A DNA stretch of 64,000 nucleotides from an uncultured Rikenellaceae bacterium (GCA_964466705.1 CAYXSM010000011.1:48193-112192); one strand, 5' to 3'. Positions 14,556 to 55,339 are shown, counted from the first letter of the stretch. Program-made: numbers and translations. Notes: a model not told the origin generated them from the sequence alone.

Positions 14556-14576
14556 TAAGTTATGTTTACGGACCCT

Positions 14577-16058
14577 TTATTCAAAGGATTTTCTGCTATA
14601 GTTAGGTGATTCCCTGGTTATTGCAACGTCATGCGGATGGCTTTCAATGATGCCGGAATGGGTAATCCTGACAAATCGTCCTTCTTTCTTGAGTACTTCG
14701 ATATTTCTGGCACCAAGGTACCCCATACCGGCTCTTAGTCCTCCGGTCATCTGGTAAATTACTTCAGCGAGTGTCCCTTTATATGGAACCCGTGCTTCAA
14801 TACCTTCCGGCACCAGCTTTTTTATATCATCTTCAACATCCTGAAAATAACGGTCCTTTGATCCCTGCTGCATGGCTTCTATAGATCCCATTCCCCTGTA
14901 GGCCTTGAATTTGCGTCCGCTGAAGATGATGGTGTCCCCGGGAGATTCCTCAACTCCTGCAAACAATGATCCGGCCATTATTGAGTCGGCGCCTGCTGCC
15001 AGAGCTTTTATGATATCACCAGAATATCTGATACCTCCATCTGCAATGACCGGAACACCCGATCCTGCAACAGCTTTGGCGACATTGTAAATTGCTGAAA
15101 GTTGTGGTATTCCCACTCCGGCAATAACACGGGTGGTGCATATAGATCCGGGTCCGATGCCCACTTTGAGCCCGTCAGCACCTTCATTTACAAGTTTTAT
15201 CGCAGCCTCGGCCGTTCCGATATTTCCGGCGATAATATCAGTATCTGAATAGTTGCTTTTTATCTGCCTGAGTATTCTGAGGACGTTAGCCGAGTGCGCG
15301 TGTGCAGTATCGATAACAATAGCGTCAGCATTTGCATTAATCAGAGCCTCAACTCTTTGCATAGTATCGGCAGATATGCCCACGGCTGCAGCAACCCTTA
15401 ATCTCCCCTTATCATCCTTACATGAATTCGGGCGGTCTTTGGTTTTTGAAATGTCCTTGTATGTTATAAGCCCTATCAGCTTTCCCGATTCATCAACCAT
15501 CGGGAGCTTCTCTATTTTATGTTTCTGAAGGATTCTTGCCGCAGCATTAAGGTTTGTCTGGTGGTTTGTTGTTATCAGCTCGGTGGTCATAACCTCGGTT
15601 ATCCTGCGGGCAAAATTATTTTCAAAGCGCAGATCTCTTGTAGTGACGATTCCTTTAAGTACCCCGTTATGGTCGATGACCGGAATACCCCCGATATGAT
15701 ATTCTTTCATCAGGTTTAATGCTTCGGCTACAGTCGCATCGGTGTATATGGTGATAGGGTCTGAAATCATCACATTTTCGGCACGTTTAACCCTTTTAAC
15801 CTGTGCTGCCTGCTTTTCTACCGACATGTTCTTATGGATCACCCCGATACCTCCTTCCCGTGCAATGGCAATTGCCAGCTCATCTTCGGTTACCGTATCC
15901 ATTGCCGCAGAAACAACAGGGGTGTTAATGGGGATATTTTTCGAAAACATGGAGCTTAGATCCACCTCGCGGGGTAAAACCTCTGAATACGCAGGGACAA
16001 GCAGAACATCGTCAAAGGTTAATCCTTCGTAAAGTATCTTTTCCTTCATGAATGACAT
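14577..16058 (-). CDS. guaB: IMP dehydrogenase
   Basis: 493 aa. [12 protein letters not shown]-terminus, CBS pair, and catalytic loop [11 protein letters not shown]. An alternative start lies at 16049. Confidence 0.95.
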
Positions 16059-16346
16059 ATCTGTCTGTATAAGTTAATACTGGCGCAAATTACAAAAAAA
16101 GCAGAACTTTGGAAATAAGTTGTTTCATATTATAGCGCTGCCCCCAAAAAGGAGCCAAAGCTACTGATTCTTGCAATCCCTGATGTCATCTTAACTCAAT
16201 TGTCTCCGCCTTAATCTGCTTTTCTGGCTGCTGTCATATAAAGACGGTATCTCTACAGTGAAGCAGGAGAAGCAGGGCAAAATTTGCAAATCATATAGTC
16301 ACGGGGATATTCTCCTTTCATGACGGTACAATTAAAATACAGTTAC

Positions 16347-16354
16347 TACATTTG
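16347..16354 (+). promoter_or_regulatory. Bacteroidota -7 box candidate (TACATTTG) for recQ
   Basis: Exact TAnnTTTG match 24 nt upstream of the ATG at 16378. Confidence 0.3.
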
Positions 16355-16377
16355 TAATAGTGCAAAAGGAAATAAAT

Positions 16378-34272: not shown

Positions 34273-35616
34273 TTATGGCCATTTCCTGCTAAAAACAGCA
34301 TAAGGGCAGCTGACTGTTGTCAGGTACACCGAATTTTGCGGAGAGTCTTCGTTATAGCATTCCCATGGAGCTCCGAATTCATTACCTTTCCGGTAATCTC
34401 CTTCCCTGAGATCGTCAATATATTCCTTTGCAAGCTTTTCTGCTGCCGTGACATCGACCATGGCAATTGCATAACATACCCATCCTGTCGGAGTTCCCCA
34501 GTATGCACCATTCTGATATGTGCCTTTTTTTGCCAGGCTCTTTTCCCAGGCTGTCAGATCGCTGAAATCGTCAGATGTTAGTATGTGCCTTATATTGCCC
34601 CGCTTTGATAAGGTGCCGTTTTTATGGGAATCCCTCAGAAACAGGCAGCTTTTCTTCATATCAGATTCTTCCAGAACTTTAAAATAAACAGCCAGTGCGG
34701 TGCTCCATACATCAGGCTGGCTGCTGCATCCGGTTGAAGCCAGCAGCATCCCGCGTTCATCGTAAAAGACCTGTCTTATCTCATTCCTGATCCGTCCTGC
34801 GATATTTCTGTATATTCCGGCTTTATCATTACGGCCGATCATGTCGTACATTTCTGCCATCTCGACAGACGCCCTGTACTTCAGCAGAGAGGGAAGACAA
34901 AGATCCCCTGTGATGTAAATCACATCCCTGAAGCCAAAATCGACACCCCTGAAATCGTCATTTGTATATACCAGAACACCATCCTGCCGGGTAGGGGGCA
35001 TGTTGTATGCCATTTCAAGACGATCAATGAGTCTTATTCCATTGATCTCGGCAAGCAAATATTCTGCAGAGCTAGCGCTTTTTACATAATAATGAGCCAT
35101 GTGAATAAAAAAATACTGATCACAGTAGGGGGGAACCATTCCCCATGTTTTTCCGCCCTGATTATCGTAATCGAAAGTGCCCGGATAATAGACCGGCCTG
35201 CTGTCGTCAATCCGGATATGATCAGCTATCGCACCGGCAGGGACCATGCTTCCGGCTTTTGTAATCCAGGTGCGGTCGCATTGTGTTGAAGCAGTAAGCT
35301 CAAGCATGTGTTTCTGCTCTGTTTCCGTCACAAATCCTGACTCCAGCGACATTGCATAGTCGCGGATCCAGAAAGCAGGATAACAGTCACGCCCGCCTGG
35401 CCTTACCAGAATACCGCCGGTATTATTGGGTCCGAAATCAGGAGAAATTTTTTGCCCGGGATAGATGCGTGAACTTTCGAGAACGTCCTGCGTCAGCTTT
35501 TTGAGAAATTCAAGATCATTACCTGACAGAAGGCAATTCCCCGGATTCGCTATCTGACAGCTCAACTGACAGAATGGAATTAAATTCAGCAATATAAAAA
35601 CCAGAATGTTTCTCAT
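34273..35616 (-). CDS. Exported protein of unknown function, possibly a six-hairpin (alpha/alpha)6 glycosidase-like fold
   Basis: Signal peptide. FWIRDYAMS (WxRD-like) and YQNGAYWGTPTGWV motifs recall (alpha/alpha)6 glycosidases. No family is assigned. Confidence 0.4.
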   Translation of the reverse strand: MRNILVFILLNLIPFCQLSCQIANPGNCLLSGNDLEFLKKLTQDVLESSRIYPGQKISPDFGPNNTGGILVRPGGRDCYPAFWIRDYAMSLESGFVTETEQKHMLELTASTQCDRTWITKAGSMVPAGAIADHIRIDDSRPVYYPGTFDYDNQGGKTWGMVPPYCDQYFFIHMAHYYVKSASSAEYLLAEINGIRLIDRLEMAYNMPPTRQDGVLVYTNDDFRGVDFGFRDVIYITGDLCLPSLLKYRASVEMAEMYDMIGRNDKAGIYRNIAGRIRNEIRQVFYDERGMLLASTGCSSQPDVWSTALAVYFKVLEESDMKKSCLFLRDSHKNGTLSKRGNIRHILTSDDFSDLTAWEKSLAKKGTYQNGAYWGTPTGWVCYAIAMVDVTAAEKLAKEYIDDLREGDYRKGNEFGAPWECYNEDSPQNSVYLTTVSCPYAVFSRKWP

Positions 35617-35695: not shown

Positions 35696-36763
35696 CTATT
35701 TCTCACCTGGTGGAATATAGTGATATTTTTCTCCCCAGGCCATATGGATCCAGGGCATTACTGACCGGTCTTCCAGCCTCGGATAATTCAGCCAGTAAGG
35801 TTCCCTGTGATCGACGGAATGACCCATCTCATTCTCGTGTCCTGCAATTATCAGCTGAGGCCTGAAACCTTTTGCCAGTCTTTTCTCCGGATCCAATCCC
35901 CATGTATTTACCATAAGCACATCTACTGAATGGAAATCCGAAACGCTCTTCATCCACAGGAAGTCTTCACTGTTTGACTGGTCTCCCGTGTGAGAAAAAG
36001 AAAGTCCCTCCGGCGTGAAAACAAGATATACATTATTCAGTATTTTTTCTCCCTGGTGCCCGGGATAGTTTACAAATTTAATTCTGAGGTTTTTTTGAGG
36101 AATAAGTATCTCCTGTATCTCATGTGCTTTTCTTTCCGGATGTGTTACTCTTTTAAAGACTGGCAGGTCTGTCCACAGATCCGGAGGAGTAATTACCGGT
36201 TTGTTCCCTGACAGGAATAATTCAGCTGTAGCCGGATCGGCATGGTCTCTGTGATAGTGGGAAATGAAGAGCATATCAATCTCTTTGACCAGCATCTTCA
36301 TCATTTCATCACCAATCATAAACCCGTCATTTCCAGTGAGCCCTTTCTGAATGTCAAATCCTATCGTAACTGAGGATGTTTTTACAACAAAAGCGTGATT
36401 ATACAATTTCCAGATAACAGCACCCTCGCTGACTTTTGTTGTCCTGATTTCTTCCACTGCGGTTTCCATACGGTTCCTGAAGAAGTCATGGACAGCTTTA
36501 TGTAAAGGCGCCTTTTCTTCATGCAGGACATTGTCGATCAGAAGCAAAGCCAGTTTCCTTATTAATGGCTCTTCAACTTCAGGAGGATGATTTTTCAATA
36601 CATCATTAACAAGTCTCAGGGATATACTTGCCTGTTGATTATAGAATCCATCAATGTCGCCCCACCAGTCAGTTCTCTTGTCCGGGTCAGAAATCTCAGT
36701 TTTCTGTGCGAGCAGCACAGAATGAAAGAGTAAAATAATTAAAAGCAAATAAACCTTTCTCAT
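35696..36763 (-). CDS. Exported metallo-beta-lactamase-fold hydrolase
   Basis: Signal peptide and the HxHxDH motif (SHYHRDHAD). Confidence 0.7.
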   Translation of the reverse strand: MRKVYLLLIILLFHSVLLAQKTEISDPDKRTDWWGDIDGFYNQQASISLRLVNDVLKNHPPEVEEPLIRKLALLLIDNVLHEEKAPLHKAVHDFFRNRMETAVEEIRTTKVSEGAVIWKLYNHAFVVKTSSVTIGFDIQKGLTGNDGFMIGDEMMKMLVKEIDMLFISHYHRDHADPATAELFLSGNKPVITPPDLWTDLPVFKRVTHPERKAHEIQEILIPQKNLRIKFVNYPGHQGEKILNNVYLVFTPEGLSFSHTGDQSNSEDFLWMKSVSDFHSVDVLMVNTWGLDPEKRLAKGFRPQLIIAGHENEMGHSVDHREPYWLNYPRLEDRSVMPWIHMAWGEKYHYIPPGEK

Positions 36764-36864
36764 ATTTTTAATATTGAATAATACTTATGTAACCTCAGGA
36801 CCTCAAAAAATAATACAAGCAACTGCCTGTCTGGATACTACTTATCCTGATATGGCAAATTATT

Positions 36865-38223
36865 TCAGATAACGGTCATATTATTGCCGTTCCTTATCAT
36901 TCTTTCCACTGACAGCAGGTTCATCATCTGATATCGGATCTGATGGAAATTATCCTTCCGGTAAATGCTGATACCCGGTCTTTGTTTATCTTTTCCGAAG
37001 CGGTCAACAGCCTGTCTCCATACTCCTGTACCAGTATCCGCCATATGTTTCAGGCAATATTCCCTGCCACGTTCATACCATTCCTTCGCCCAGACTTCAC
37101 CAGTATGTTCGAAGATGGTCATCGTTGCCACCAGAAGTTCGGTATGTGCCCACATCACCTTCAGATCAAGCTCCGGCCCCTGACATTTATCCTCTTTACG
37201 GAACACATAATAATCTTCTGTACCCATCCCTTCGAAAACATAATCCCAGGTCATTTCAATGAGACGCCTGACCCGGGTCTTTATTATATGGAAAAGCTGG
37301 CTGTCTTTTTTACGGAGGGCTTCAAGCAAAACCATCCACAGGGTCTCCAGGTAATGGCCGGAATACATTACAGTTTCATGTCCGGGAAGCCTGGAATAAT
37401 CATGGAACAGGTTTTCATTGTTAATACCATACTCGCTGTTCCAGAAATCATTGATAATATGATTAACATGCTCATTCAGCAGTGCTTCAAGATCCTGATC
37501 CTCATAAAATGAAAGAAGATTTGTAAGCGGCCATACTATCATAAAAGAATGTCCCAGGGTTCTCAGACCCCTGCTGTCTGTTCCGGGAACAGTAATACCA
37601 TCATAATAAGGGTTATCGTAGATCTTTACAGATTCTCTTATTGAATCAAGGGAAATTTCAAGATCATCTTTGTTCCTGGAGGCTTTGTATAACTCTATCA
37701 ATCCGGCAGCAGAGAAAAGAGCACCGTAAATATCTTTGCCTGAACCCTGAGAAACCGTGCTTACCACGGGTGTTCCTTCCCTGTTAACTGATTCATGCCA
37801 CTGACCCTTACCGATATACATTTTATTCACGAGGAATTCCCGCGACTTTTCAGCTATTTCCAGGTATCTTCTGTCTTTTCCGAAATTATTGAACAGGAAT
37901 GAATAGACCCAGATACCTCTTCCCTGATACCAGATATATTTTTCATCATTGACAACCGAGCCGTCATCATAAAGCTCACACATGAATCCGCCCAGCTCTT
38001 CATCATAGCCGCCCTTTTCCCAGAAGGGAAGATACTGATTAAGAATGCGCTCTCTGTAGTCGTTTCTCAACTCCTCTGGAGTCATACCGGCAATTTTCTC
38101 CGGGAATGAGCCTGATGAGGCCGGATTCTTACTGCAGCCGGTGCTTAATCCTGGCAGAAAAGCTCCGGAAGAAACAACGGCACTGCCCGTGATTATGTTT
38201 TTTATTAATCTCCTTCGCTTCAT
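36865..38223 (-). CDS. AGE-family (N-acylglucosamine 2-epimerase / sugar isomerase fold) protein with Tat-type lipoprotein signal
   Basis: MKRRRLIKNIITGSAVVSSGAFLPGLSTGCS. The (alpha/alpha)6 AGE-like repeats include WYQGRGIWVYSFLFN. Confidence 0.7.
   Translation of the reverse strand: MKRRRLIKNIITGSAVVSSGAFLPGLSTGCSKNPASSGSFPEKIAGMTPEELRNDYRERILNQYLPFWEKGGYDEELGGFMCELYDDGSVVNDEKYIWYQGRGIWVYSFLFNNFGKDRRYLEIAEKSREFLVNKMYIGKGQWHESVNREGTPVVSTVSQGSGKDIYGALFSAAGLIELYKASRNKDDLEISLDSIRESVKIYDNPYYDGITVPGTDSRGLRTLGHSFMIVWPLTNLLSFYEDQDLEALLNEHVNHIINDFWNSEYGINNENLFHDYSRLPGHETVMYSGHYLETLWMVLLEALRKKDSQLFHIIKTRVRRLIEMTWDYVFEGMGTEDYYVFRKEDKCQGPELDLKVMWAHTELLVATMTIFEHTGEVWAKEWYERGREYCLKHMADTGTGVWRQAVDRFGKDKQRPGISIYRKDNFHQIRYQMMNLLSVERMIRNGNNMTVI
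38200..38220 (-). other. Twin-arginine motif (KRRRLIK) of the AGE-family protein
   Basis: Codons verified on the minus strand: AAG CGA AGG AGA TTA ATA AAA. A hydrophobic h-region and lipobox follow. Confidence 0.55.
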
Positions 38224-38281
38224 ATTGAAAAGAACTGGAAAAGACTTGTGTAAAAGTAAAATCAGATAAATTATAAAACCT

Positions 38282-41104
38282 TTATCCGGGAGAGCTGACC
38301 TTGTTAACCAGATAAACCACTGACTTGTGAGATATACCGGAATGCAGGCTCAGGCCTATTTCACATGTCCGGCTGGTAGAGTATCCGTGTTTTACTTCCG
38401 GAGGTATCTGAGCTTTAAGATTCCGTAATCCATGCCGGTTGAGCTCAGGATATGTAAATCCTCTGTCTCCTGCAAATCCGCAGCAGTTAGTGTCAGGCAC
38501 TATTACTTCACCGGCACATTTCTTTGCCAGAGCAACCAGCATTTCTGTCAGTCCCATTTTTTTCATGCTGCAGACAGGAAAGACAGTGACTGTTTCATTA
38601 ACAGGTGTTATTTTAAGCCATGGAAGCAGGTATTCCGTGATGAACTGGACAGGTTCATAAAGCTTCAGTCCTGAGGTGAAATTCTCCTTCATTGTATAAA
38701 GACACGGGCTCATATCGCAGAGAACAGGAAACTCCCCGTTGTTACTTGCTTTAAGAAGAGCTTTTTCCAGTTCTTCGGACTTTTTTTCGCCGGCTTTTTT
38801 GTATCCTTTGCTGAGAAATGCCATTCCGCAACACAGCTCATCCATGTTTTCGGGAAAGACAGCTTCGTAACCGGCTTTATTAAGAAGACATATCATTTCC
38901 CGTGTGAGCTGGGCCTCTTCGTTATGATCTTTTGAAGTTCCCATTGAACGGTTTATGCACGACGGAAAATATACCACTTTTCGCAGGCCGTTGCTGATTA
39001 GAGGACCAGCTGCATTTATCTTTGTGGCACCGCCTGGCATATAAGGATTCCAGAAAGGGATTCTTCTTCCCGACATATTCCTGAGTCCTCCTGCAATCCA
39101 TTTCATAAGGGTTGTACCAAGGATTTTGTGGAACAGACTTACAAAAGAGAGTGCCTTTCGGGCAACAGATGTTACAAATGCCATATGATCTGCAATCCAG
39201 GATGCCACTCTCTGCCTGTTGCCGATTTTTTCAAGGCGCAGCTTTTTGACCAGCTTTCCCGTATCGATTTTGACCGGGCAGCTTATGGCACATAAACCGT
39301 CAGTAGCACATGTCTTATCTCCTTCATAAGAGTAGGAACGCACCAGAGAAGAGACTATATGGGGCTCCTGTCCGGTTTTAAGGAGGCTTGATATCTCCCT
39401 GTATACTACTATACGCTGCCTTGGTGAAAGGGTCAGGTCCGAGGACACACACGACGGTTCGCAGAAGCCGCATTCAATGCATTTATCTATTTCATCGTCA
39501 GCAGCGGGAATGGGCTTAAGATTCCTCAGATGTATTTCAGGATCCTGATTCAGAATGACACCCGGATTGAGAATGTTAAGCGGGTCAAAGATTTCCTTGA
39601 TCCTCTCCATTACCTGATATGCTTCTTTTCCCCATTCCTGCATTACAAAAGGAGCAACATTCCTTCCTGTTCCATGCTCCGCTTTCAGCGACCCGTCATA
39701 CCTGGCAACCACAAGGTCCGATACTTCAGCCATCAGGTTTTTATATCTCGCAATCTCCTCTTTGATTCCGAAATCCTGACTGAAAATAAAATGAAGGTTG
39801 CCTTCCAGGGCGTGACCATAGATTACGGCATCATTATAACCGTAATTCTTCAGAATATTCTGAAGGTCAGAAGTGGCGTCGCCAAGCCTTTGAATGGGGA
39901 AAGCGACATCTTCTATGATCACGGTTGTGCCTTTTTTTCTCATTGCACCTACTGACGGGAACAATCCTTTCCTTATGTCCCAGTAAACGGAATACTCTTT
40001 CGGATTATCCGTAAAAGTAAGGGGCATTTCTGACGGAATATCACTGATTGCTTCAAGGATTTTCTCAATCTGTCTGCCGAGATCCGGTTGATGATCTGTT
40101 GATGTTTCTACCAGCAGCGCACTTGCTCCGGGAGACAGCTTTTTAAGAAAGTCAGGCATACCGGGCTCATTCTCAACTGACCGCAGTCCTGATCGGTCGA
40201 TTATTTCCACTGCTGTCACCGGAGCAGATTTTAAGCGCACGACTGCTGTGCAGGCATGCCTAAGCCCCGGAAAGATCATCAGGGAACTGGCTTTGTATTT
40301 ATGCTCGGCTACTGTATTAAGATTAATTCCGGAAATAAAACCAAGAGTGCCTTCCGAACCTATCATCAGATGCTTTATTATATCAAAGACACCGGTGAAA
40401 TCGGTCAGCGCATTAAGGCTGTAACCGGTTGTGTTCTTGAGAAGGTATTTATGTTTAATCCTGTCTGACAGAGGCTTGTTTTCCTGCACTGACTTTGCCA
40501 GTGCCATAATATTTTTTACGAGGTCTGAATGTGATTCCAGGAAACAATCCCTGCTTTTTCCGTCACCTGTATCAAGAACCGTTCCGTCAGCAAGGACGAT
40601 CCGCAGGCTCTCAATGGTATTATATGCATTTTCTCCGGTTCCGCTGCTCATTCCGCTTGCATTGTTCGCAATTATTCCTCCTATGGTGGCTGCATTGATT
40701 GAGGCAGGGTCGGGACCAATCTTTCTGCCGTAAGGAGCCAGAAGAGAATTTATATAACCACCAGTCAGCCCGGGTTGCAGACTTATCTTTAAGCCATTAT
40801 CGGTAATGCTGTAATTTTTCCAGTAGTCTGATGCTATTACAAGAACGGAATCGGTTATGGCCTGACCTGAAAGACTTGTTCCGGCTGCACGGAATGTTAC
40901 GGGGATCCTGAGCGAGGAGCATTCCCTTACAATAAGAGATATTTCGCCCTCGTCTTTTGCCTTGATAACCATTTTCGGGATCAGCCGGTAGAAACTTGCA
41001 TCGGCACCAAAGGCCAGGGTGTGCAGAGGATCATGGTATATCCTTTTTTTATCTATTTGTCTGACTAATCTGTTATATAGATCAAGATGTTTTCCATTAA
41101 GCAT
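38282..41104 (-). CDS. FAD-linked oxidase fused to Fe-S/CCG domains (YdiJ / D-lactate- or D-2-hydroxyacid-dehydrogenase-like), cytoplasmic
   Basis: 940 aa. N-terminal FAD PCMH-type domain, 4Fe-4S motifs CIECGFCEPSC and CATDGLCAISCP, and two CCG motifs (CCGMAF, CCGFAGD). Confidence 0.85.
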   Translation of the reverse strand: MLNGKHLDLYNRLVRQIDKKRIYHDPLHTLAFGADASFYRLIPKMVIKAKDEGEISLIVRECSSLRIPVTFRAAGTSLSGQAITDSVLVIASDYWKNYSITDNGLKISLQPGLTGGYINSLLAPYGRKIGPDPASINAATIGGIIANNASGMSSGTGENAYNTIESLRIVLADGTVLDTGDGKSRDCFLESHSDLVKNIMALAKSVQENKPLSDRIKHKYLLKNTTGYSLNALTDFTGVFDIIKHLMIGSEGTLGFISGINLNTVAEHKYKASSLMIFPGLRHACTAVVRLKSAPVTAVEIIDRSGLRSVENEPGMPDFLKKLSPGASALLVETSTDHQPDLGRQIEKILEAISDIPSEMPLTFTDNPKEYSVYWDIRKGLFPSVGAMRKKGTTVIIEDVAFPIQRLGDATSDLQNILKNYGYNDAVIYGHALEGNLHFIFSQDFGIKEEIARYKNLMAEVSDLVVARYDGSLKAEHGTGRNVAPFVMQEWGKEAYQVMERIKEIFDPLNILNPGVILNQDPEIHLRNLKPIPAADDEIDKCIECGFCEPSCVSSDLTLSPRQRIVVYREISSLLKTGQEPHIVSSLVRSYSYEGDKTCATDGLCAISCPVKIDTGKLVKKLRLEKIGNRQRVASWIADHMAFVTSVARKALSFVSLFHKILGTTLMKWIAGGLRNMSGRRIPFWNPYMPGGATKINAAGPLISNGLRKVVYFPSCINRSMGTSKDHNEEAQLTREMICLLNKAGYEAVFPENMDELCCGMAFLSKGYKKAGEKKSEELEKALLKASNNGEFPVLCDMSPCLYTMKENFTSGLKLYEPVQFITEYLLPWLKITPVNETVTVFPVCSMKKMGLTEMLVALAKKCAGEVIVPDTNCCGFAGDRGFTYPELNRHGLRNLKAQIPPEVKHGYSTSRTCEIGLSLHSGISHKSVVYLVNKVSSPG

Positions 41105-41184
41105 TGTTTAATTGTATTTCACCCGGAGACACAAATTCCGGAACAAATTATCATAAAAGATTTTTCACCAATACATCCAGAGTT

Positions 41185-42453
41185 TTAAAGTTCCGAAATT
41201 TTAATATTTTTCCACCTGACTTTTATTCCTCCGCCATCGTGGATCTGCAGAAGTATGCGACCCTGTCCCTGTCCTATTTTTTCATCATTCAGGTCTGTCA
41301 TCAATTCCCCGTTAAGCCATGTGGTCACATTATCACCGACGGTTTTGATGCGCAGGGTATTCCAGTCTTTTGCCTCAAGAAAGGTTTCTTTTTCATCCGG
41401 GATCCTTGCAATCCAGCCTCTGCCGTATGATTCATATATGCCGCCGGTGTCGTGTCCGGGAGGAGCTACCTCAACCTGCCATCCTGATATCTCAACATCC
41501 CTCTTTATATATGAGCGGATGAATACTCCGCTGTTCCCATTGGAGATCAGTTTGAAGTCCAGACTGAGGTCAAAATCATTATAGTATTTTCTTGTACCAA
41601 GGTAACCGTATTTTTTTTCCGGACCGCTTTCGCAAACAAGCTCTCCGTTGTCAACATACCACAGTTCGGTTCCATAAGCTTCCCATCCGGTCAGATCAAC
41701 ACCGTTAAATAGCACCTCCTCCCTGGGTTTGCGTGGCAGTTCTTTCAGCTTTATGTTCTTGTACCATGTTTTGCTGCCATGATCCTGCAGGGAAATATAA
41801 CCTTTTCTTGCAAGTCCGTACTCAGGGGCATAGTCCCATTTACCGCCTGACCGGCGTTCGAACCAGTCATCGGACCATGCTTCGAATTCAATGATCTTTT
41901 CCCCGTTGAGCCAGTGTTCAACGTGACCGTTGTCAAAAACTATTTTGGAGGAATTCCAAAGTCCTGCCTTTTTTACAATCTTTTTATCCGGATCAGGCAC
42001 ATACATTGCATAATCAGCGCCAGCCTTCTGCCAATCCTCGAGTTTTTCAGGAAAGCCCAGATCGTCAATTACCTGGTACTCAGGACCTGAAACATACGGT
42101 ACTTTATACTCAGGACGTTCAAGGACATGATATAATACCCCGCTGTTTCCCCCTTCAGCTATTTTCCAGTCAAAGGTGAGAATAAAGTTCTCATACTGCT
42201 TCTCGGTAACAATGTAACCTGTGCTATCGCTCCCAAGTCCCAGTCCTGATAGAGATCCGCGATCAACTTTCCATGGGCCTTTCAGGTCTTCTCCCTGGAA
42301 ATCGCGCCAGCCATTCAGCGTCTTACCATCGAACAGCAGGGTCCAGCCTTCCTCTGCTTCCAGTAAGGTCAGCTTGTTGTCGGCTTGTTTACAGCCTGTA
42401 AATACTAATCCCGTAAAAAGGATAATTGTCAGGGAAAAAAGTTTTTGTTTCAT
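41185..42453 (-). CDS. Lipoprotein with two tandem DUF1080 (3-keto-disaccharide-hydrolase-like) domains
   Basis: Lipobox FTGC. Two repeats each carry LFDGKxLxGW / NSGVxxx / WLNG / LQxHG...KNIK (LLFDGKTLNGW...ISLQDHGSKTWYKNIKLKEL and VLFNGVDLTGW...LLQIHDGGGIKVRWKNIKISEL). Confidence 0.75.
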   Translation of the reverse strand: MKQKLFSLTIILFTGLVFTGCKQADNKLTLLEAEEGWTLLFDGKTLNGWRDFQGEDLKGPWKVDRGSLSGLGLGSDSTGYIVTEKQYENFILTFDWKIAEGGNSGVLYHVLERPEYKVPYVSGPEYQVIDDLGFPEKLEDWQKAGADYAMYVPDPDKKIVKKAGLWNSSKIVFDNGHVEHWLNGEKIIEFEAWSDDWFERRSGGKWDYAPEYGLARKGYISLQDHGSKTWYKNIKLKELPRKPREEVLFNGVDLTGWEAYGTELWYVDNGELVCESGPEKKYGYLGTRKYYNDFDLSLDFKLISNGNSGVFIRSYIKRDVEISGWQVEVAPPGHDTGGIYESYGRGWIARIPDEKETFLEAKDWNTLRIKTVGDNVTTWLNGELMTDLNDEKIGQGQGRILLQIHDGGGIKVRWKNIKISEL

Positions 42454-42847
42454 TTTCTTAAGTTTATCTGATTTAATTGAAATTTGCCTATGTCGTTAAG
42501 ATATTGTCAGTTACTTTTTTCAGGTTGTTATTACGCGGCCTTCAAACTTTTCAGGATCAGAGTCAGCAAAATATAAAAAAAACCAATAAAAGACTGATCC
42601 CGCAGATCAAAATTATTCCCTCAATTTCGATAAAGTGTTGCTCTGATCTGAAATACTGCTGAAATGACTATGTTTTTTTCTCTTTACAGAGTTTGTTAAT
42701 AAAGTGCAGCATGATTAAACAATGGTTATTATGCCATAAAGGATACAAAGGCCGGAACAACGGACCTGATAGCCGGCAGAGAATTGTTGGTCAGTTTTGC
42801 TTTGTGTTGACAGTATCAGGTCAACAGGTGTATTTTTCTTAATGACT

Positions 42848-44146
42848 TTACAGTGAATACACTGGTATTTTAAGCAGTTCCCCGTCATTTAATGCTGATT
42901 TGTGTGCCACAATTCCTGGGACTGTCATATTAAGGGCAGATACAATATCGATCAGAGGCTTACGGTCCAGAAGGATTGATTCGATGAACTCATTCATCAG
43001 GTTTCCGTGCGATCCTCCGTGGCCGCCTGCAGGTACTCCCGGGGGAAGCGGGGGACGTCTCAGGTCAGGAAGGTTTTTCTCAAGACCTTCGTATCTGCCA
43101 TAAAACGATCCTCTCTGTCCTCTGATCCTTCCTCTCTCTCCACCGTCACCGGGTGTGTCCCAGCTGACACCCATCCGGGCCATTCCCCCTTCACTGGTCC
43201 GGAAAAGGGCTATTTCAGTGCCATATGGATTTTTATAAATGTTGTTTTCAGGCCTCAGGTGCGCAATGATACTGGGCATTCCGGCACATGATACTTCAGT
43301 GAAAGCACCACCTGTTACCCCTGTATGATAGGCATTTGAGTGAGTGGGATACCATTGAGGCGGAAGTCCGATACGCCATCCCCTGAATGAGTCAATGGGC
43401 TCGCTCATATAGTGAAAATATTCGCCTTCAGAATAGACCAGTTTCCCGAAGCCCCCCATGTCGCAGACCTTCCGCATGGCATACAGGTCTTCCCTGAAGC
43501 ATGATGTTTCAAACATCATATATTTTAATCCGCTCGATCTGACTTCCTCAAACAGTTTGTCTGCATCTTCAAGTGAACCGAAAACGGCAGGAACTGCACA
43601 GGCCACATGTTTTCCATGGCGGAGAGCATCGATGACATGTCTGGCATGACCGGGAGCATCCGTTGCCACAAAGACTGCTTCAATATTCTCATCTTTGACG
43701 AGCTCCTCAAGTGACGGATAAGTCCTGGAACAATTGCATACCCTTGCGAGCTCAGAACACCTGTCAGGGAAAAGGTCACTTACCGCCACTATCTCCACAT
43801 TCGGGTGATTCTGGAAACCAAAATCAGCTCCAAACCTGCATACTCCATAACCTACGATACCTACACGAACCTTACGGTCGGTCAAAGGCTCCCAGACTCT
43901 GATTGATCCATTATCGTCCGGCTCTCTTTCAAATCCCTGTATCGGAGGGATATCTGACTGTTCACTAAGTGGTTTTCTGCCGACAGAACATCCGGACTGT
44001 GTAATCCCGTATGCAGCTGCTCCAATCCCTGCAACACGGATAAAATTACGCCTGGAAAAGGTCCTGTCTGTTTGTGATCTGTCAGCTTGGCATGGAGAGA
44101 TATTTTCTTTGCTATTTCCGGTTTTTCTTTCTGGCTTTGCTTTCAT
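42848..44146 (-). CDS. Tat-signal Gfo/Idh/MocA-family NAD(P) oxidoreductase (dehydrogenase or GH109-like)
   Basis: FSRRNFIRVAGIGAAAYG twin-arginine signal, Rossmann VGIVGYGVCRFG, and a Gfo/Idh/MocA C-terminal alpha/beta domain. Confidence 0.8.
   Translation of the reverse strand: MKAKPERKTGNSKENISPCQADRSQTDRTFSRRNFIRVAGIGAAAYGITQSGCSVGRKPLSEQSDIPPIQGFEREPDDNGSIRVWEPLTDRKVRVGIVGYGVCRFGADFGFQNHPNVEIVAVSDLFPDRCSELARVCNCSRTYPSLEELVKDENIEAVFVATDAPGHARHVIDALRHGKHVACAVPAVFGSLEDADKLFEEVRSSGLKYMMFETSCFREDLYAMRKVCDMGGFGKLVYSEGEYFHYMSEPIDSFRGWRIGLPPQWYPTHSNAYHTGVTGGAFTEVSCAGMPSIIAHLRPENNIYKNPYGTEIALFRTSEGGMARMGVSWDTPGDGGERGRIRGQRGSFYGRYEGLEKNLPDLRRPPLPPGVPAGGHGGSHGNLMNEFIESILLDRKPLIDIVSALNMTVPGIVAHKSALNDGELLKIPVYSL
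44036..44056 (-). other. Twin-arginine motif (SRRNFIR) of the Gfo/Idh/MocA protein
   Basis: Codons verified: TCC AGG CGT AAT TTT ATC CGT. Confidence 0.65.
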
Positions 44147-46468: not shown

Positions 46469-46927
46469 TTATTTTAACTTCTCAATTTTCCATAACTCTC
46501 CGTTCTTTACGGAAATATCTGATGTTTCAATGATAACTTCTCTTTTAAGCGATTTAACAGTTGTTTTCCTGTTTTGCAGGATTTCCTCCAGGGAATAAGT
46601 TCCTTCCTCCGGCACCTTTATCCTTATTTTCGCTTTTTCCTTAGTTTTGCCGTGGTTAAGCACATAAAGCAGGTGACCTCCCGGGTAGTTGTGCAGACGC
46701 ACAACAAGGGGATTTTTCTTTTCTCCTTCCTGTGTAATATCAAACGGCCTTTCAATTTTAGCCCATTCGACAAGGCCTGATAGAAACCTGTTAACATTCT
46801 CGTTGGCAGAGTCCTGAACCGTCAGACGCTGAGTTGACTGATCCCACAGCGATCCTCTCGAGTTAGCCATTGCGATGAATGATCCGATAAAAATTGTGTG
46901 CCCCATACCGTAATCTGATGATATCAT
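46469..46927 (-). CDS. Short ORF resembling only the C-terminal part of a GH42-type beta-galactosidase; either a gene remnant or a stand-alone domain
   Basis: 152 aa with no signal peptide. ...LVVRLHNYPGGHLLYVLNHGKTKEKAKIRIKV...ELWKIEKL resembles the GH42 C-terminal beta-sandwich. The stop lies 2 nt from the next start. Confidence 0.35.
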   Translation of the reverse strand: MISSDYGMGHTIFIGSFIAMANSRGSLWDQSTQRLTVQDSANENVNRFLSGLVEWAKIERPFDITQEGEKKNPLVVRLHNYPGGHLLYVLNHGKTKEKAKIRIKVPEEGTYSLEEILQNRKTTVKSLKREVIIETSDISVKNGELWKIEKLK

Positions 46928-52810: not shown

Positions 52811-53434
52811 ATGACTAAAAAGGCAGATCCGGTTTTTTCGGTAGCGGTTCTGGAATTCACTGCTGCGGCAAATGAGTTTTGCAAATATTCCGAACGTGCT
52901 TCCGAACTGAAGGGCAATGAATTTCTGGGAATACTTCAGCGCCTCTTGCCTTACCTGTACATGAAGGCTTCTCTGCTTCCTGCCCTCGAACCCTTTTTCG
53001 AAGAAGGGAATACAAAGACGGTAACAGAATCGGACTGGAATGTTGTACATGACCGGCTGAAGTCAAAATTTGGAGCTGCAAATGAATTTTATGAAGTTTT
53101 TGATGACAAAATAAGGGAATCTGACGGACCGGTTGTTGCAAGCCTTGCAGAGAATATGGCTGACATTTACCAGGATCTTAAGAATTTCCTTATACTTTAC
53201 CGTACCGGGACGAATGAGATTATGAATGATGCAATTTGGGAATGCCGGATGAATTTTGAAAATTACTGGGGGCAAAAACTTGTTAATTCGCTCAGGGCTA
53301 TCCATAAATTCATATATTCGGGAGAAGAAACGGAGCAGGAAGGAACTGGCGTGGATGAAGCGCGGGAGAAAGACACTTCTGAATGGTTTATCTCACGCAG
53401 GCAAAAAGAATTCAGGCAGGATGATCAACAATAA
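52811..53434 (+). CDS. DUF5063-like protein
   Basis: 207 aa, helical and acidic. Sits directly upstream of a 3'-5' exonuclease gene and overlaps it, an arrangement I recognise from Bacteroides genomes. Confidence 0.55.
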   Translation: MTKKADPVFSVAVLEFTAAANEFCKYSERASELKGNEFLGILQRLLPYLYMKASLLPALEPFFEEGNTKTVTESDWNVVHDRLKSKFGAANEFYEVFDDKIRESDGPVVASLAENMADIYQDLKNFLILYRTGTNEIMNDAIWECRMNFENYWGQKLVNSLRAIHKFIYSGEETEQEGTGVDEAREKDTSEWFISRRQKEFRQDDQQ

Positions 53435-54005
53435 AAAATATCTTTCGACATTAGATTCAACTGATCTTGCCGGGTACAGGGTTTCATCCTTCAGAGGGGA
53501 GATTGTTCTCGTAGAAGATATGGAAACCTACGAAAAACACTTCCCCCGTCTTTCAGGACATAGCGTGCTGGGTTTTGATACCGAAACCAAACCTTCATTC
53601 AGAAAAGGACGTAAAAACAAGGTTTCCCTCATCCAGCTGGCAAGCAAAGATCTGGCATGTTTATTCAGGATAAATAGAATAGGAATACCTGAAGAACTGG
53701 CCGGACTGCTGTCCGATCCGTCCGTAATCAAGGCTGGAGTAGCAATACATGATGACATCCGTTTTTTGACAAGAGTGAAGAAGTTTAATCCATCCGGATT
53801 CGTTGATCTGCAGAAATTTGTAAAGGATTATGGAATAGTGAGTTCCGGGCTAAAAAAACTCTCTGCCATAGTTCTTGGCTTCAGGATCTCAAAAAATCAG
53901 CAGACTACTGACTGGGAAGCTGATACCCTGACCGAGGCTCAGCAGTTATATGCAGCAACTGATGCATGGGTGTGCTATGAGATTTACAAAAAACTGACCG
54001 GATAA
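53421..54005 (+). CDS. 3'-5' exonuclease (DEDDy, RNase D / WRN-exo-like)
   Basis: ExoI motif GFDTETKP and ExoIII motif YAATDAWVCYEIY. The ATG at 53421 is preferred over the track start 53256, which lies inside DUF5063. Confidence 0.8.
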   Translation: MINNKKYLSTLDSTDLAGYRVSSFRGEIVLVEDMETYEKHFPRLSGHSVLGFDTETKPSFRKGRKNKVSLIQLASKDLACLFRINRIGIPEELAGLLSDPSVIKAGVAIHDDIRFLTRVKKFNPSGFVDLQKFVKDYGIVSSGLKKLSAIVLGFRISKNQQTTDWEADTLTEAQQLYAATDAWVCYEIYKKLTG

Positions 54006-54121
54006 TCTTTTTTCATCAGAGTTCCTTTCATGTCAGGAGATCCACAAAAATCAGCCATCAGGATAAACCTCAGTGCAAGAGGACTTGTGTTAAACGGATT
54101 TTATAATAAGTTGCAATAAAT

Positions 54122-55303
54122 TTGGAAAAAGCACGAATAATACTAAAATCGGGGAAAGACCAGTCCCTTCGCAGATACCACCCCTGGGTTTTCTCAGGGG
54201 CCGTAAAAAAGATCTGCGGGAATCCGGTTGAAGGAGATACAGTTGATGTTTATGACAACAAAGGCTCTTTTCTTGCTGTCGGGCATTACCAGCCGGGGTC
54301 AATAGCTGTCAGAATTCTCTCTTTTGAAAATATTACTCCCGATGCTGAGTTTTACAGGCAAAGGCTTACAAATGCCATATCGTACAGAAGATCAATAGGG
54401 TTAATTGGAAATCCTTCAACGGATATTTTCAGGATCGTTCATGCAGAGGGAGATAACCTGCCGGGATTGATAATTGACTATTACAACGGATTGATCGTTA
54501 TGCAGACTCATTCTGCAGGTATGTACAGGATCAGGAAGGATCTTGCAAAATTACTGTCGGAACTCATGGGTGAGCGGATAACGGCAATCTTTGATAAGAG
54601 TGAGTCAACGATTCCTTATATGTCGGGAATAAAAGGATCAAATGAATTTCTTTTCGGCAAAGCAGGTCAGGTTATTGCGACTGAAAATGACTTCAGGTTC
54701 ATAGTTGACTGCAAAACAGGCCAGAAAACCGGATTCTTCATCGATCAGAGAGACAACAGGTCACTGCTGACCTCGTATACCGAAGGACGAATTGTTCTGA
54801 ATCTTTTTGGGTATACTGGCGGTTTTTCTGTTTACGCACTGAAAAACGCCAGGGAAGTTCATACCGTCGACAGTTCAGCGCAGGCAACAGAGCTCGCTGA
54901 TGAAAATGTAAAACTTAATTATGGTGTAACAGTAAACCATAAATCAATAAAAGGCGACGCCTTTGAATTTCTTAATACCATAAAAGACAGATATGATCTT
55001 ATAATTCTTGATCCTCCGGCCTTTGCAAAACACAATAATGTCCTGGCAAATGCATTGCAGGGTTATAAAAGAATGAATATGAAAGCTATAGAACAGATCA
55101 AACCCGGAGGTGTTATTTTTACCTTTTCATGCTCACAGGTTGTCTCCAGGGAAAATTTCAGAAAATCTGTATTTGCCGCTGCGGCAAATACCGGCAGAAA
55201 TGTGAGGATTCTGCACCAGATGAGCCAGCCTCCCGACCATCCGGTTAATATCTATCACCCGGAGAGCGAGTATCTCAAAGGACTGGTGATATATGTTGAG
55301 TGA
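54122..55303 (+). CDS. rlmI: RlmI-like class I SAM-dependent rRNA (m5C) methyltransferase (PUA + MTase)
   Basis: N-terminus ARIILKSGKDQSLRRYHPWVFSGAV matches the RlmI PUA start. Also has GYTGGFSVYA and ILDPPAFAK. Only a TTG start is available, since an in-frame stop sits at 54107. Confidence 0.8.
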   Translation: MEKARIILKSGKDQSLRRYHPWVFSGAVKKICGNPVEGDTVDVYDNKGSFLAVGHYQPGSIAVRILSFENITPDAEFYRQRLTNAISYRRSIGLIGNPSTDIFRIVHAEGDNLPGLIIDYYNGLIVMQTHSAGMYRIRKDLAKLLSELMGERITAIFDKSESTIPYMSGIKGSNEFLFGKAGQVIATENDFRFIVDCKTGQKTGFFIDQRDNRSLLTSYTEGRIVLNLFGYTGGFSVYALKNAREVHTVDSSAQATELADENVKLNYGVTVNHKSIKGDAFEFLNTIKDRYDLIILDPPAFAKHNNVLANALQGYKRMNMKAIEQIKPGGVIFTFSCSQVVSRENFRKSVFAAAANTGRNVRILHQMSQPPDHPVNIYHPESEYLKGLVIYVE

Positions 55304-55339
55304 TATATTTTTAAATATTTAAACAGATAAGGATTTGTA

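Follow-up and report, generated by a model that had tools for sequence, protein, structure and literature searches.

Six adjacent genes in the 64,000-nucleotide stretch of DNA that we analysed (the window) lie side by side in a mosaic accessory island rather than forming one pathway, a reading to which we assign a probability of about 0.6. The block comprises at least three functional units: a Tat-signal Gfo/Idh/MocA oxidoreductase (Gfo), a lipoprotein with two DUF1080 repeats and an FAD/Fe-S/CCG fusion dehydrogenase (FAD/Fe-S). The initial annotation had instead proposed a linear route. There, Gfo oxidises C3 of a glycoside, the tandem DUF1080 protein cleaves the product, and the FAD/Fe-S protein oxidises a D-2-hydroxy acid, while the AGE-family, metallo-beta-lactamase-fold (MBL) and six-hairpin-like proteins assist. 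We consider this route highly improbable. The genes are distributed as a patchwork across 121 genomes of the genus. Hence, a single pathway with a D-2-hydroxy acid as its end product is unsupported, and the locus of this uncultured Bacteroidales bacterium looks fairly ordinary, a patchwork of sugar genes at a genomic hotspot.

The layout of the block is as first described. Open reading frames, Pfam matches and N-termini bear out the six genes on the minus strand together with their domain content and export signals, as well as the 394-nt gap (Table 1). The MBL and u447 genes lie outside the originally annotated interval 36865-44146. We assigned signal peptides and promoters by visual inspection. 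Only 80 nt separate the tandem DUF1080 gene from the FAD/Fe-S gene, and 58 nt separate the latter from the AGE gene. The common strand and the short spacing downstream of the gap speak for a linear route.

Table 1. Features of the gene block and of the surrounding island (window coordinates).
Feature	Coordinates	Strand	Evidence
Tat-signal Gfo/Idh/MocA oxidoreductase, 432 aa	42848-44146	-	PF01408; SRRNFIR motif
Intergenic gap, exactly 394 nt	42454-42847	.	sequence read directly
Double DUF1080 lipoprotein, 422 aa	41185-42453	-	PF06439, two stretches; lipobox-like ...VFTGC
FAD/Fe-S/CCG fusion dehydrogenase, 940 aa	38282-41104	-	FAD_binding_4, FAD-oxidase_C, 4Fe-4S dicluster, CCG
AGE-family (N-acylglucosamine 2-epimerase-like) protein, 452 aa	36865-38223	-	PF07221; MKRRRLIK...STGC
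Exported metallo-beta-lactamase-fold (MBL) protein, 355 aa	35696-36763	-	marginal Lactamase_B_3
u447, exported (alpha/alpha)6-barrel glycosidase-like protein, 447 aa	34273-35616	-	predicted model
Variable island, 22 glycan-related genes	18312-52595	-	Pfam annotation; synteny maps of >40 related loci
RecQ, backbone gene bounding island	16360-18282	+	
DUF5063, backbone gene bounding island	52811-53434	+	

The interval between RecQ and DUF5063 measures 34.5 kb in the window and can be as short as ~1.5 kb in relatives. Its far flank is a DUF5063-exonuclease-methyltransferase-Tex block. The content of the interval varies. A ~1.5-kb version contains the tandem DUF1080 gene alone (L039, L042, L069-L072, L102); others contain the tandem gene together with a GH109-like Tat-Gfo (L028-L030, L041, L043, L073, L075, L112, L113). 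In two further loci the FAD/Fe-S gene is present with zero island genes (L025, L027), and in a third it is accompanied by a single DegT gene (L021). The interval is a genus hotspot that accumulates exported carbohydrate-active genes.

Among the 121 genus genomes, which are related and therefore non-independent samples, a full-length tandem DUF1080 gene occurs in 31, often alone at the hotspot. The FAD/Fe-S gene occurs in 44, mostly without DUF1080, AGE or Gfo genes nearby, and Gfo in 22. AGE orthologues were found in six of the 121 and in none of 300 other genomes of the order. The tandem DUF1080 and FAD/Fe-S genes are mostly apart, contrary to the linear route: both are present in 6 of 121 genomes, compared to ~11 expected under independence. 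The two genes adjoin in four of these six genomes, and a wider locus survey added two adjacent loci. On the DUF1080 tree, the six loci at which the genes adjoin cluster together (SH-aLRT 82) and are thus counted as a single event. The adjacency has a single origin in one lineage, which argues against the linear route.

The FAD/Fe-S gene is conserved as an occupant of the hotspot in its own right. It has no tandem DUF1080 gene beside it in 40 of the 44 genus genomes that carry it, and DUF1080, AGE and Gfo genes are missing nearby in 11 of 12 related loci fetched around it. Outside the genus, neither an FAD/Fe-S gene nor a close AGE homologue lies within 10 kb at any of 41 tandem-DUF1080 loci (the sole AGE match, at L117, is 27% identical). 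Likewise, three FAD/Fe-S loci from outside the genus (L022, L023, L026) lack DUF1080, AGE and Gfo genes in the 3-9 kb retrieved to either side of them.

Gfo and the tandem DUF1080 gene occur together somewhat more often than expected under independence (10 of the 22 Gfo genomes, compared to ~5.6), a count drawn from related, non-independent genomes. Yet adjacency of Gfo to the DUF1080 gene is limited to the window and a close relative (L066). This relative repeats the order Gfo, gap, tandem DUF1080, FAD/Fe-S, AGE, MBL, a point in favour of the linear route. Elsewhere, Gfo is found 7-9 kb from the DUF1080 gene or on another contig, which counts against it.

Gfo is the final gene of an upstream operon, cerA-DegT-DegT-cerB-u152-esterase-Gfo, and this too is at odds with a linear route. 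One genome (G024) keeps the order cerA-DegT-DegT-cerB-GH42-Gfo with its Gfo 9 kb from the DUF1080 gene, and Gfo orthologues in other genomes adjoin GH78, GH29, MBL, esterase and GH42 genes. In the window, the 394-nt gap probably separates two transcription units. A hairpin lies directly 3' of the Gfo stop codon, and the tandem DUF1080 gene would have a promoter region of its own. An Rfam search of the gap gave no match. The regions upstream of the DUF1080 gene are poorly conserved among orthologues, except for a T-rich ...TATTTTGCT stretch common to the two closest relatives.

The Gfo protein has PF01408 as its single Pfam match, and its twin arginines R32/R33 are conserved to 90% or more among 26 homologues. 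It belongs neither to BT_2158_fam nor to GH109, a point against the linear route. It did not match the BT_2158_fam model (NF058561, cut-off 750 bits) at E <= 0.001 and is not among the 32 whole-genome matches. The suggestion of a GH109-type NAD-dependent glycosidase finds no support, as a Pfam scan of the protein gave no GH109_C (PF21252) match. GH109 enzymes (2IXA, 6T2B) share the Gfo/Idh/MocA fold and the Tat signal with it. They differ in PF21252, which is missing here but present in the Tat-Gfo proteins that adjoin the tandem DUF1080 genes of relatives; the host genome (G000) carries its copy of this GH109-like Tat-Gfo on contig 4 (59% identity). Structure comparison returned the expected fold, with 2IXA in rank 3, but it did not single out a subfamily: the predicted structure is a generic Gfo fold with 15-20% identity to all subfamilies, and GH109, KanD2-type and others matched equally well.

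By analogy with KanD2-KanS2 of kanamycin biosynthesis, Gfo most likely carries out a redox step on a sugar hydroxyl or ketone in support of the enzymes of the upstream operon. That operon combines exported DegT aminotransferases and ceramidase-like amidases with an esterase, and Gfo closes it. KanD2/GenD2 is an aminoglycoside 3''-dehydrogenase and KanS2/GenS2 a DegT-type aminotransferase; both are cytoplasmic and biosynthetic. In these systems (6JW6, 6NOR), as in the window, a Gfo/Idh/MocA dehydrogenase is encoded with DegT aminotransferases, and the fold match is no worse than that to other subfamilies. Unlike these enzymes, the window Gfo and one of the DegT proteins bear Tat signals, and their genes have those of exported hydrolases as neighbours.

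The far end of the linear route fares no better. The FAD/Fe-S protein contains PF01565, PF02913, PF13183 and PF02754, the Dld-II/YdiJ architecture. As in Dld-II (Shewanella SO1521, H. pylori HP1222) and E. coli YdiJ, a GlcD-like FAD part precedes 4Fe-4S/CCG modules, a likeness at the level of architecture within a group where stereospecificity is disputed even among Dld-II orthologues (PMC4117512; PMC9504171). The original YdiJ/Dld-like label holds to this extent. Beyond it, the protein differs from the E. coli D-2-hydroxyglutarate dehydrogenase YdiJ: it scores 165.3 bits against the equivalog model NF049975 (cut-off 1350), with residues 25-519, the N-terminal half, alone covered. This shortfall also weakens the linear route. 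Scores for GlcD (183, cut-off 568) and GlpC (68, cut-off 278) are low as well. The protein has at least 8000 homologues, JGI's automatic name for it is D-lactate dehydrogenase, and its N-terminus shows no visible signal peptide. It is probably a dehydrogenase of the Dld-II/YdiJ type that acts in the cytoplasm on a 2-hydroxy acid, most likely D-lactate, and has a separate role. We found no link to the cytoplasmic oxidation of a D-2-hydroxy acid product that had been proposed. The characterised oxidative pathway yields a 3-keto-hexose, which is then reduced to a sugar again (bioRxiv 10.1101/2024.03.25.586180, PMC8121099), and the literature cited here on that pathway describes no step yielding a 2-hydroxy acid, a further point against the linear route.

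What does carry over from the original proposal is its chemistry, for one protein. The oxidise-eliminate-hydrate route (BT2156-BT2160 / AL1-AL5) is recognised by a Tat-exported Gfo/Idh/MocA protein paired with a DUF1080 lipoprotein, which is why the two families lend the linear route some credit. The premise that DUF1080 is a hydrolase family is outdated: characterised members are 1,2-lyases and hydratases (bioRxiv 10.1101/2024.03.25.586180, PMC8121099). In the window protein, PF06439 (3keto-disac_hyd / DUF1080) matches two stretches with 281.9 bits (threshold 26.8, E 3.6e-84). The A-type repeat (residues ~24-240) resembles BT2157, while the B-type repeat (~245-422) belongs to a divergent DUF1080 subfamily. 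We compared the BT2 channel residues E103, N134, E164, Q166, Y190, K245, Q273 and H275. The A repeat keeps equivalents of the last seven and carries a conserved Asp close to where E103 would lie. In the B repeat, N and Q-x-H are retained, Q-x-E replaces E-x-Q, and the segment with K245 is missing.

Judged by these residues, the A repeat is most likely a periplasmic BT2157-type 3-keto-glycoside 1,2-lyase and 2-hydroxy-3-keto-glycal hydratase, and the B repeat may be a second catalytic partner or a binding domain. Keto-sugar substrates would come from one of the ~30 Gfo paralogues of the genome, possibly the adjacent Gfo. Tat-Gfo neighbours recur. GH109-like Tat-Gfo genes adjoin tandem DUF1080 orthologues within the genus (the neighbour c14 has PF21252, E 3.6e-38), and GFO_C2-type ones do so at 10 of the 41 loci outside the genus, four of them with an AP_endonuc_2 lyase-like gene. 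Loci with AP_endonuc_2 beside a tandem-protein orthologue come from Draconibacterium, Tannerella and Prolixibacteraceae. Because the A repeat has the BT2157 residues and Tat-Gfo neighbours recur, an oxidise-then-eliminate route is plausible for the tandem DUF1080 protein alone. The proposed oxidise-then-cleave chemistry is supported for the families and residues and not for six genes acting as one unit.

The lyase role is deduced from residues since a Gfo neighbour is missing at 31 of the 41 loci outside the genus. These 31 loci would also fit a different explanation: the tandem DUF1080 protein is a conserved envelope or glycan-binding protein with a different role, not a keto-glycoside lyase, and its Gfo neighbours are incidental in genomes with many members of both families. 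In many genomes its gene stands alone between housekeeping genes. Orthologues are conserved across Bacteroidia at 55-83% identity, and the 55-67% identity between families exceeds what is usual for a catabolic enzyme with a specific substrate. A 421-aa DUF1080 protein, a candidate orthologue at most, is part of the outer-membrane-vesicle proteome of Tannerella forsythia (PMC10682907). Moreover, the host genome has 32 Gfo-like and 9 DUF1080-like regions, so that chance adjacency is not negligible. We nevertheless find an envelope role doubtful: the A repeat retains every conserved BT2157 active-site position, and Tat-Gfo neighbours of three subfamilies recur in distant taxa, sometimes with the AP_endonuc_2 type and SusC/SusD. 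A lyase remains our preferred reading of the A repeat.

This lyase would not belong to a canonical BT/AL locus. The window resembles B. thetaiotaomicron BT2156-BT2160 and Alistipes AL1-AL5 in having a Tat-Gfo beside a DUF1080 lipoprotein and in the A-repeat residues. It differs in that its Gfo is not BT_2158_fam and its DUF1080 protein fuses two domains and shares ~30% identity with BT2157 (E ~6e-29 to 8tda). The open reading frames scanned (12.9-59.1 kb) include no AP_endonuc_2 (PF01261) gene and no second, BT2159-type Gfo, and Pfam annotation of the island gave no SusR-like regulator. A much closer counterpart of the canonical pair is found on contig 4 of the same genome: a true BT_2158_fam member (C4:155345-156808; 877.9 bits, cut-off 750) has single DUF1080 genes on both sides, and one of these matches BT2157 structures (E ~1e-74). 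Closer to the window protein are two solved structural-genomics 'putative glycosyl hydrolases' for which the cited literature gave no published activity. 3U1X matches the A repeat (E 1.6e-64). 4JQT is a 431-aa tandem DUF1080 protein with the same two domain subtypes but in the order B then A, whereas the window protein has A then B.

A 4JQT-type paralogue is encoded on contig 1 of the host genome (E 5e-154). Both fusion orders in one genome, together with free-standing B-type proteins in sister genomes, hint that the A-B tandem could be a self-contained two-step enzyme, possibly co-transcribed in this lineage with the Dld-II-type dehydrogenase and a periplasmic AGE protein. The A repeat would then be the 3-keto-glycoside 1,2-lyase and B a glycal hydratase or a lyase for the opposite anomer. 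If so, the fusion would stand in for the two separate proteins, AP_endonuc_2 and DUF1080, that the BT/AL system uses. We regard this idea as unlikely.

The first three genes downstream of the gap need separate consideration. The order tandem DUF1080, FAD/Fe-S, AGE is kept in six loci with 67-83% protein identity while the surrounding genes differ, and a terminator-like hairpin follows the AGE gene directly (36830-36815). Because of this order and this hairpin, a lineage-specific operon with a joint role that excludes Gfo has to be weighed, and we judge it decidedly unlikely. Such an operon could, for example, convert a keto-sugar or N-acyl-hexosamine in the periplasm, with the imported product feeding the FAD/Fe-S dehydrogenase. 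The two short gaps agree with an operon, and so do the AGE loci: in five of eight the AGE gene comes immediately after the FAD/Fe-S gene, and in a sixth one gene intervenes. However, in G024 a plus-strand gene comes between FAD/Fe-S and AGE, and in G139 and G068 the AGE gene is remote from the FAD/Fe-S gene. The six loci are one tree group, most FAD/Fe-S genomes of the genus lack the adjoining tandem gene (see above), and terminator-like sites are not above expectation (13 found compared to 10.9 in shuffled sequence).

In a mosaic island, the AGE, MBL and u447 proteins would be further accessory glycan enzymes. The AGE gene is a rare accessory gene whose product has a twin-arginine lipoprotein signal. 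PF07221 matches with 71.6 bits (threshold 23.4, E 9.4e-20), and PDB 2gz6 aligns with E 2.9e-37, with R57, H239 and E308 aligned and conserved. Near the C-terminus is an NFHQIR motif, presumably the FHxxR-like motif of the family. The score against the N-acylglucosamine 2-epimerase model NF052547 is 183 bits (cut-off 600); the protein is therefore an AGE-superfamily member of unassigned specificity. The MBL protein has a hydrophobic N-terminus, a marginal Lactamase_B_3 match (25.1 bits, cut-off 24) and no relative in the PDB by sequence; orthologues are present in G065 and L066. u447 matched no Pfam or NCBIfam model, and nearly all of its 1447 homologues are named hypothetical. Its predicted structure (pLDDT 77) matches (alpha/alpha)6 glycosidases of GH100, GH116, GH94 and GH37 with TM ~0.6, so the description as six-hairpin-like holds for the model.

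The block holds the six genes that the initial annotation had described, with the same domains and the same gap behind the Gfo/Idh/MocA gene (Gfo; see the table). They belong to an unbroken minus-strand run of 22 ORFs. The other genes of the run encode ceramidase-like proteins, two DegT aminotransferases (the first with a Tat signal), two Abhydrolase_7/AXE1-type esterases (730 and 750 aa), FG-GAP proteins, DUF6259, DUF362 and RraA-like proteins, an NAD-dependent epimerase, an SSF transporter and an MFS transporter. Signal peptides were judged by eye; the RR pair of Gfo is kept among 26 homologues. The genome assembly (3.88 Mb, 57 contigs) is 98% complete, and near-identical loci occur in metagenome-assembled genomes of uncultured Bacteroidales that come from digesters and biofilms.

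The six genes had been read as a single route, in which a glycoside is oxidised and cleaved and a D-2-hydroxy acid is then dehydrogenated. This reading is partly supported: a keto-glycoside-type role for the DUF1080 protein is plausible, whereas one pathway that includes the FAD/Fe-S step is not supported. We consider it probable (about 0.6) that the block combines three units in a mosaic. The Gfo enzyme would group with the aminotransferase operon upstream of it. The tandem DUF1080 protein would be an independently transcribed lipoprotein of the keto-glycoside lyase/hydratase type. The FAD/Fe-S protein would be a Dld-II/YdiJ-type dehydrogenase unrelated to the other units.

Coordinates of the features discussed (window positions, except for the last four rows, which lie in loci fetched from other contigs or genomes)
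Feature	Position	Strand	Length	Remarks
Backbone genes, RecQ side	12870-18282
RecQ	16360-18282
Run of 22 ORFs	52595-18312	-
u447	34273-35616	-	447 aa	0 Pfam, 0 NCBIfam matches
MBL-fold protein	35696-36763	-	355 aa	Pfam match marginal, 25.1 bits vs 24-bit cut-off
Terminator-like hairpin + T-run	36815-36830	-		right after AGE stop
AGE	36865-38223	-	452 aa	PF07221; MKRRRLIK...STGC
FAD/Fe-S protein	38282-41104	-	940 aa	FAD_binding_4, FAD-oxidase_C, 4Fe-4S dicluster, CCG; no signal
Tandem DUF1080	41185-42453	-	422 aa	PF06439 in two stretches, E 3.6e-84; lipobox-type N-terminus
Gap	42454-42847		394 nt	sequence read directly
Gfo	42848-44146	-	432 aa	PF01408; SRRNFIR twin-arginine motif
u152	46469-46927	-	152 aa
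DUF5063	52811-53434
Backbone genes, DUF5063 side	52811-57472
GH42-like gene (genome G024)	L048:10596-12932	-	778 aa	position equivalent to u152
Gfo array (genome G034)	L056, G034:C106:60000-79900			11 tandem paralogues
Contig 4 trio (window's genome)	L058:4444-7619	+		DUF1080 (255 aa), BT_2158_fam Tat-Gfo, BT2157-like DUF1080 (249 aa)
4JQT-type paralogue (contig 1, window's genome)	L059:5665-7017	-	450 aa	B-A order; E 5e-154

To compare the block between genomes, we retrieved about 20 kb at each of 12 loci with an orthologue of the FAD/Fe-S gene, 16 with one of the tandem DUF1080 gene and 14 with one of Gfo. The genome collection supplied 80 more loci, and all were mapped by tblastn and ORF clustering. 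The genus shares a backbone in which PPIase, IMPDH and RecQ precede a variable slot and DUF5063, an exonuclease, a methyltransferase and Tex follow it. In the window this slot measures 34.5 kb and holds 22 genes. Elsewhere it may contain the tandem DUF1080 gene alone (~1.5 kb; L039, L042, L069-L072, L102) or together with a GH109-like Tat-Gfo (L028-L030, L034, L038, L041, L043, L073, L075, L112, L113), which a GH106 enzyme and a glucuronyl esterase sometimes accompany. Where the slot holds the FAD/Fe-S gene, it is joined by none of the window's island genes in L025 and L027 and by a single DegT in L021. From these varied contents it follows that the tandem DUF1080 and FAD/Fe-S genes are long-standing residents of the slot, and that the other glycan genes accreted around both. 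The interval between RecQ and DUF5063 is thus a well-defined hotspot of glycan-gene accretion (loci L016-L043, L069-L075, L102, L112, L113). The scan of the window for tRNA genes at the island borders returned none, and there was no integrase among the ORFs scanned from 12.9 to 59.1 kb.

The tandem DUF1080 protein belongs to a widespread and well-conserved family. The protein has orthologues of 55-67% identity in Tannerella forsythia, Parabacteroides, Proteiniphilum, Dysgonomonas, Draconibacterium, Maribellus, Muribaculaceae and Bacteroidaceae. The architecture, which had been called uncharacterised, is not new: a 431-aa tandem DUF1080 protein has already been solved (PDB 4JQT), although its two domain types stand in the opposite order. 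We call the N-terminal, BT2157-like domain of the window protein A (PDB 3U1X matches it with E 1.6e-64) and the divergent C-terminal domain B. A paralogue of the 4JQT type lies on contig 1 of the same genome, 5' of a TonB-dependent receptor gene, with GH5 and GH92 genes nearby. Since both fusion orders occur in one genome, A and B subtypes are suggested to work together. Free-standing B-type proteins (~203 aa), 60-67% identical to the C-terminal repeat, occur in at least 18 genus genomes without the tandem gene (among them G002, G006, G008, G031, G034, G064, G068, G069, G073, G080, G084, G090, G095, G101, G131, G135, G137), which hints at a history of fusion or fission of the two repeats.

Characterised DUF1080 enzymes share the residues E103, N134, E164, Q166, Y190, K245, Q273 and H275, and BT2157, the DUF1080 lyase/hydratase of the known route (BT2156-BT2160), is active on 3-keto-trehalose (PMC8121099). 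We located these residues in BT2157 via PDB alignments and then aligned both repeats with the BT2157 orthologue of the same genome. The A repeat retains GGNSG, PEYQ, the Tyr, the GKW lysine and LQDH, and close to the E103 position it has a conserved Asp. The B repeat retains NSG and LQIH; Q-x-E replaces E-x-Q, and the K245 segment is absent. The uncharacterised family offers a testable active-site pattern.

A GH109-like Tat-Gfo adjoins the tandem gene in ~10 genus loci, and outside the genus 10 of 41 loci have a Tat-Gfo neighbour of the GFO_C2 type. Four loci also carry an exported, AL1-like AP_endonuc_2 gene 3' of the tandem gene, two in Prolixibacteraceae (L079, L117) and two in Tannerella (L082, L109). 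In the Prolixibacteraceae pair SusC/SusD genes lie 5' and a GFO_C2-type Tat-Gfo 3'. All four resemble complete oxidative-cleavage modules more closely than the window does. In Bacteroidaceae and Muribaculaceae a HEAT-DUF1080 protein follows. As judged from gene neighbourhoods, the recurrence of Tat-Gfo partners of varying subfamily supports a putative keto-glycoside role for the tandem protein, even though 31 of the 41 outside-genus loci have no such partner.

Nothing ties the Gfo gene of the window specifically to the tandem gene. Gfo closes a series of closely spaced genes (cerA-DegT-DegT-cerB-u152-esterase, cerA and cerB being ceramidase-like), and the wide gap comes only after it. Genome G024 keeps this order (cerA-DegT-DegT-cerB-GH42-Gfo), and there 9 kb separate Gfo from the tandem DUF1080 gene. 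Elsewhere orthologues adjoin GH78, GH29, a 630-aa MBL protein, esterases or GH42; the window and L066 are the only cases in which they stand next to the tandem gene. Paralogues also form arrays, one of five copies (G030:C22) and one of 11 with 60-69% identity (G034), the latter interleaved with two DMFA2_C-like proteins of ~527 aa with RR-type N-termini.

Pfam recognises only the Rossmann domain in Gfo, with no GH109_C, BT_2158_fam or BT_2159_fam match. The best PDB sequence matches, DgpA (E 5.7e-14) and GH109 2ixa (E 3e-11), cover the N-terminal half only. A fold search with a model of Gfo (pLDDT 68) yielded no subfamily assignment: GH109, KanD2/GenD2, levoglucosan dehydrogenase and inositol dehydrogenases all match alike at 15-20% identity, and DgpA and 1,5-anhydrofructose reductase score similarly. 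Because all subfamilies match alike, Gfo does not group firmly with inositol dehydrogenases, a placement that would have spoken against a glycoside substrate, and its neighbours are glycan enzymes.

The FAD/Fe-S protein is a putative cytoplasmic 2-hydroxy-acid dehydrogenase of a common type. Its architecture, an FAD domain followed by a C-terminal 4Fe-4S domain, is that of Dld-II (PMC4117512) and equals that of YdiJ (PMC9504171). It stays below the NCBIfam cut-offs for GlcD (183 bits, cut-off 568), YdiJ (165 bits, residues 25-519 only, cut-off 1350) and GlpC (68 bits, C-terminal half, cut-off 278). Its PDB relatives, for the FAD domain only, are glycolate oxidase, LctD, and D-lactate and D-2-hydroxyglutarate dehydrogenases. 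There are at least 8000 homologues, 66-70% identical across Bacteroidales and Prolixibacteraceae, which JGI automatically names 'D-lactate dehydrogenase'. We also considered that it re-oxidises the periplasmic Gfo, and rejected this, as its N-terminus has no signal peptide or hydrophobic segment.

Its distribution does not bear out a pathway step. In one draw of 121 genus genomes, whose relatedness makes them non-independent samples and the counts therefore descriptive only, the full-length tandem DUF1080 gene occurs in 31, the FAD/Fe-S gene in 44, Gfo in 22 and AGE in 6. Tandem DUF1080 and FAD/Fe-S genes co-occur in six (G000, the window's own genome, and G024, G029, G061, G065, G085) against ~11 expected if independent. 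Outside the genus, no FAD/Fe-S homologue lies within 10 kb of the tandem gene in 41 loci, and the 3-9 kb fetched on each side of the FAD/Fe-S gene at three loci contain no homologue of DUF1080, AGE or Gfo.

A different reading joins tandem DUF1080, FAD/Fe-S and AGE into a lineage-specific operon. The gaps between the three are short, their order is kept at six loci, and the terminator-like site behind AGE fits such a unit; it is the only minus-strand site of its kind in the block's intergenic gaps, although the overall site count does not exceed chance. Yet this arrangement rests on one evolutionary event. The two genes are adjacent in four of the six co-occurrence genomes and at two extra loci (L066, L074), and in a maximum-likelihood tree of 64 tandem-DUF1080 proteins the proteins of all six adjacent loci fall into one group (SH-aLRT 82, not starred), which fits a single origin. 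We regard the operon as unlikely and keep to the mosaic of three units. Transcription signals add little: counts in promoter and terminator consensus scans do not exceed shuffled expectation (the promoter consensus does not cover Bacteroidota), aligned upstream regions of the tandem gene are too weakly conserved to define a promoter, and an Rfam scan of 33-45 kb (E <= 1) had no matches.

The AGE protein is closest to a solved Anabaena N-acetylglucosamine 2-epimerase (2gz6, E 2.9e-37), whose R57, H239 and E308 are aligned and conserved. Near its C-terminus lies an FHxxR-like motif, which we take to be typical of the AGE family. The protein scores 183 bits against the equivalog model, below the cut-off of 600. 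Five of eight AGE loci have it directly after FAD/Fe-S; in G024 one gene intervenes, and in G068 and G139 it lies elsewhere. Orthologues are absent from 300 other genomes of the order, and the sole match within 10 kb of the tandem gene in the 41 outside-genus loci is 27% identical (L117).

The oxidise-eliminate-hydrate route (BT2156-BT2160/AL1-AL5; bioRxiv 10.1101/2024.03.25.586180) has recently come to be recognised as an alternative to classical glycosidases, and hence its true spread and variants matter for the annotation of glycan breakdown. The same genome carries the canonical set of such genes on contig 4, where a BT_2158_fam Tat-Gfo gene (877.9 bits, 750-bit cut-off) has single-domain DUF1080 genes on both sides. 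The downstream one matches BT2157/AL2 structures (8tda, 8rr2, 3osd, 8v31; E ~1e-74). GH95 and a 3-dehydro-L-gulonate 2-dehydrogenase-like gene adjoin the trio. Overall the genome has 32 Gfo-like and nine DUF1080-like regions, so adjacency of the two is by itself weak evidence. Our case is mainly cautionary: in genomes this rich in Gfo and DUF1080, adjacency alone defines no pathway, and annotations of the route should leave out the cytoplasmic FAD/Fe-S enzyme.

Two further genes deserve mention. The guess that u447 is six-hairpin-like agrees with the fold matches of its model (25 homologues, pLDDT 77), which resembles the (alpha/alpha)6 enzymes GH100, GH116, GH94 and GH37 (TM ~0.6). Given this predicted glycosidase-like barrel, the family, for which neither Pfam nor NCBIfam has a model, is a candidate uncharacterised glycoside hydrolase family. 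This family is well conserved, with 1447 homologues, the best 120 being 64-77% identical and coming from several Bacteroidota groups. The small u152 is 62% identical to the C-terminal end of the GH42-like gene that G024 has in the corresponding place, which suggests a remnant: an esterase gene would have replaced the body of the GH42 gene.
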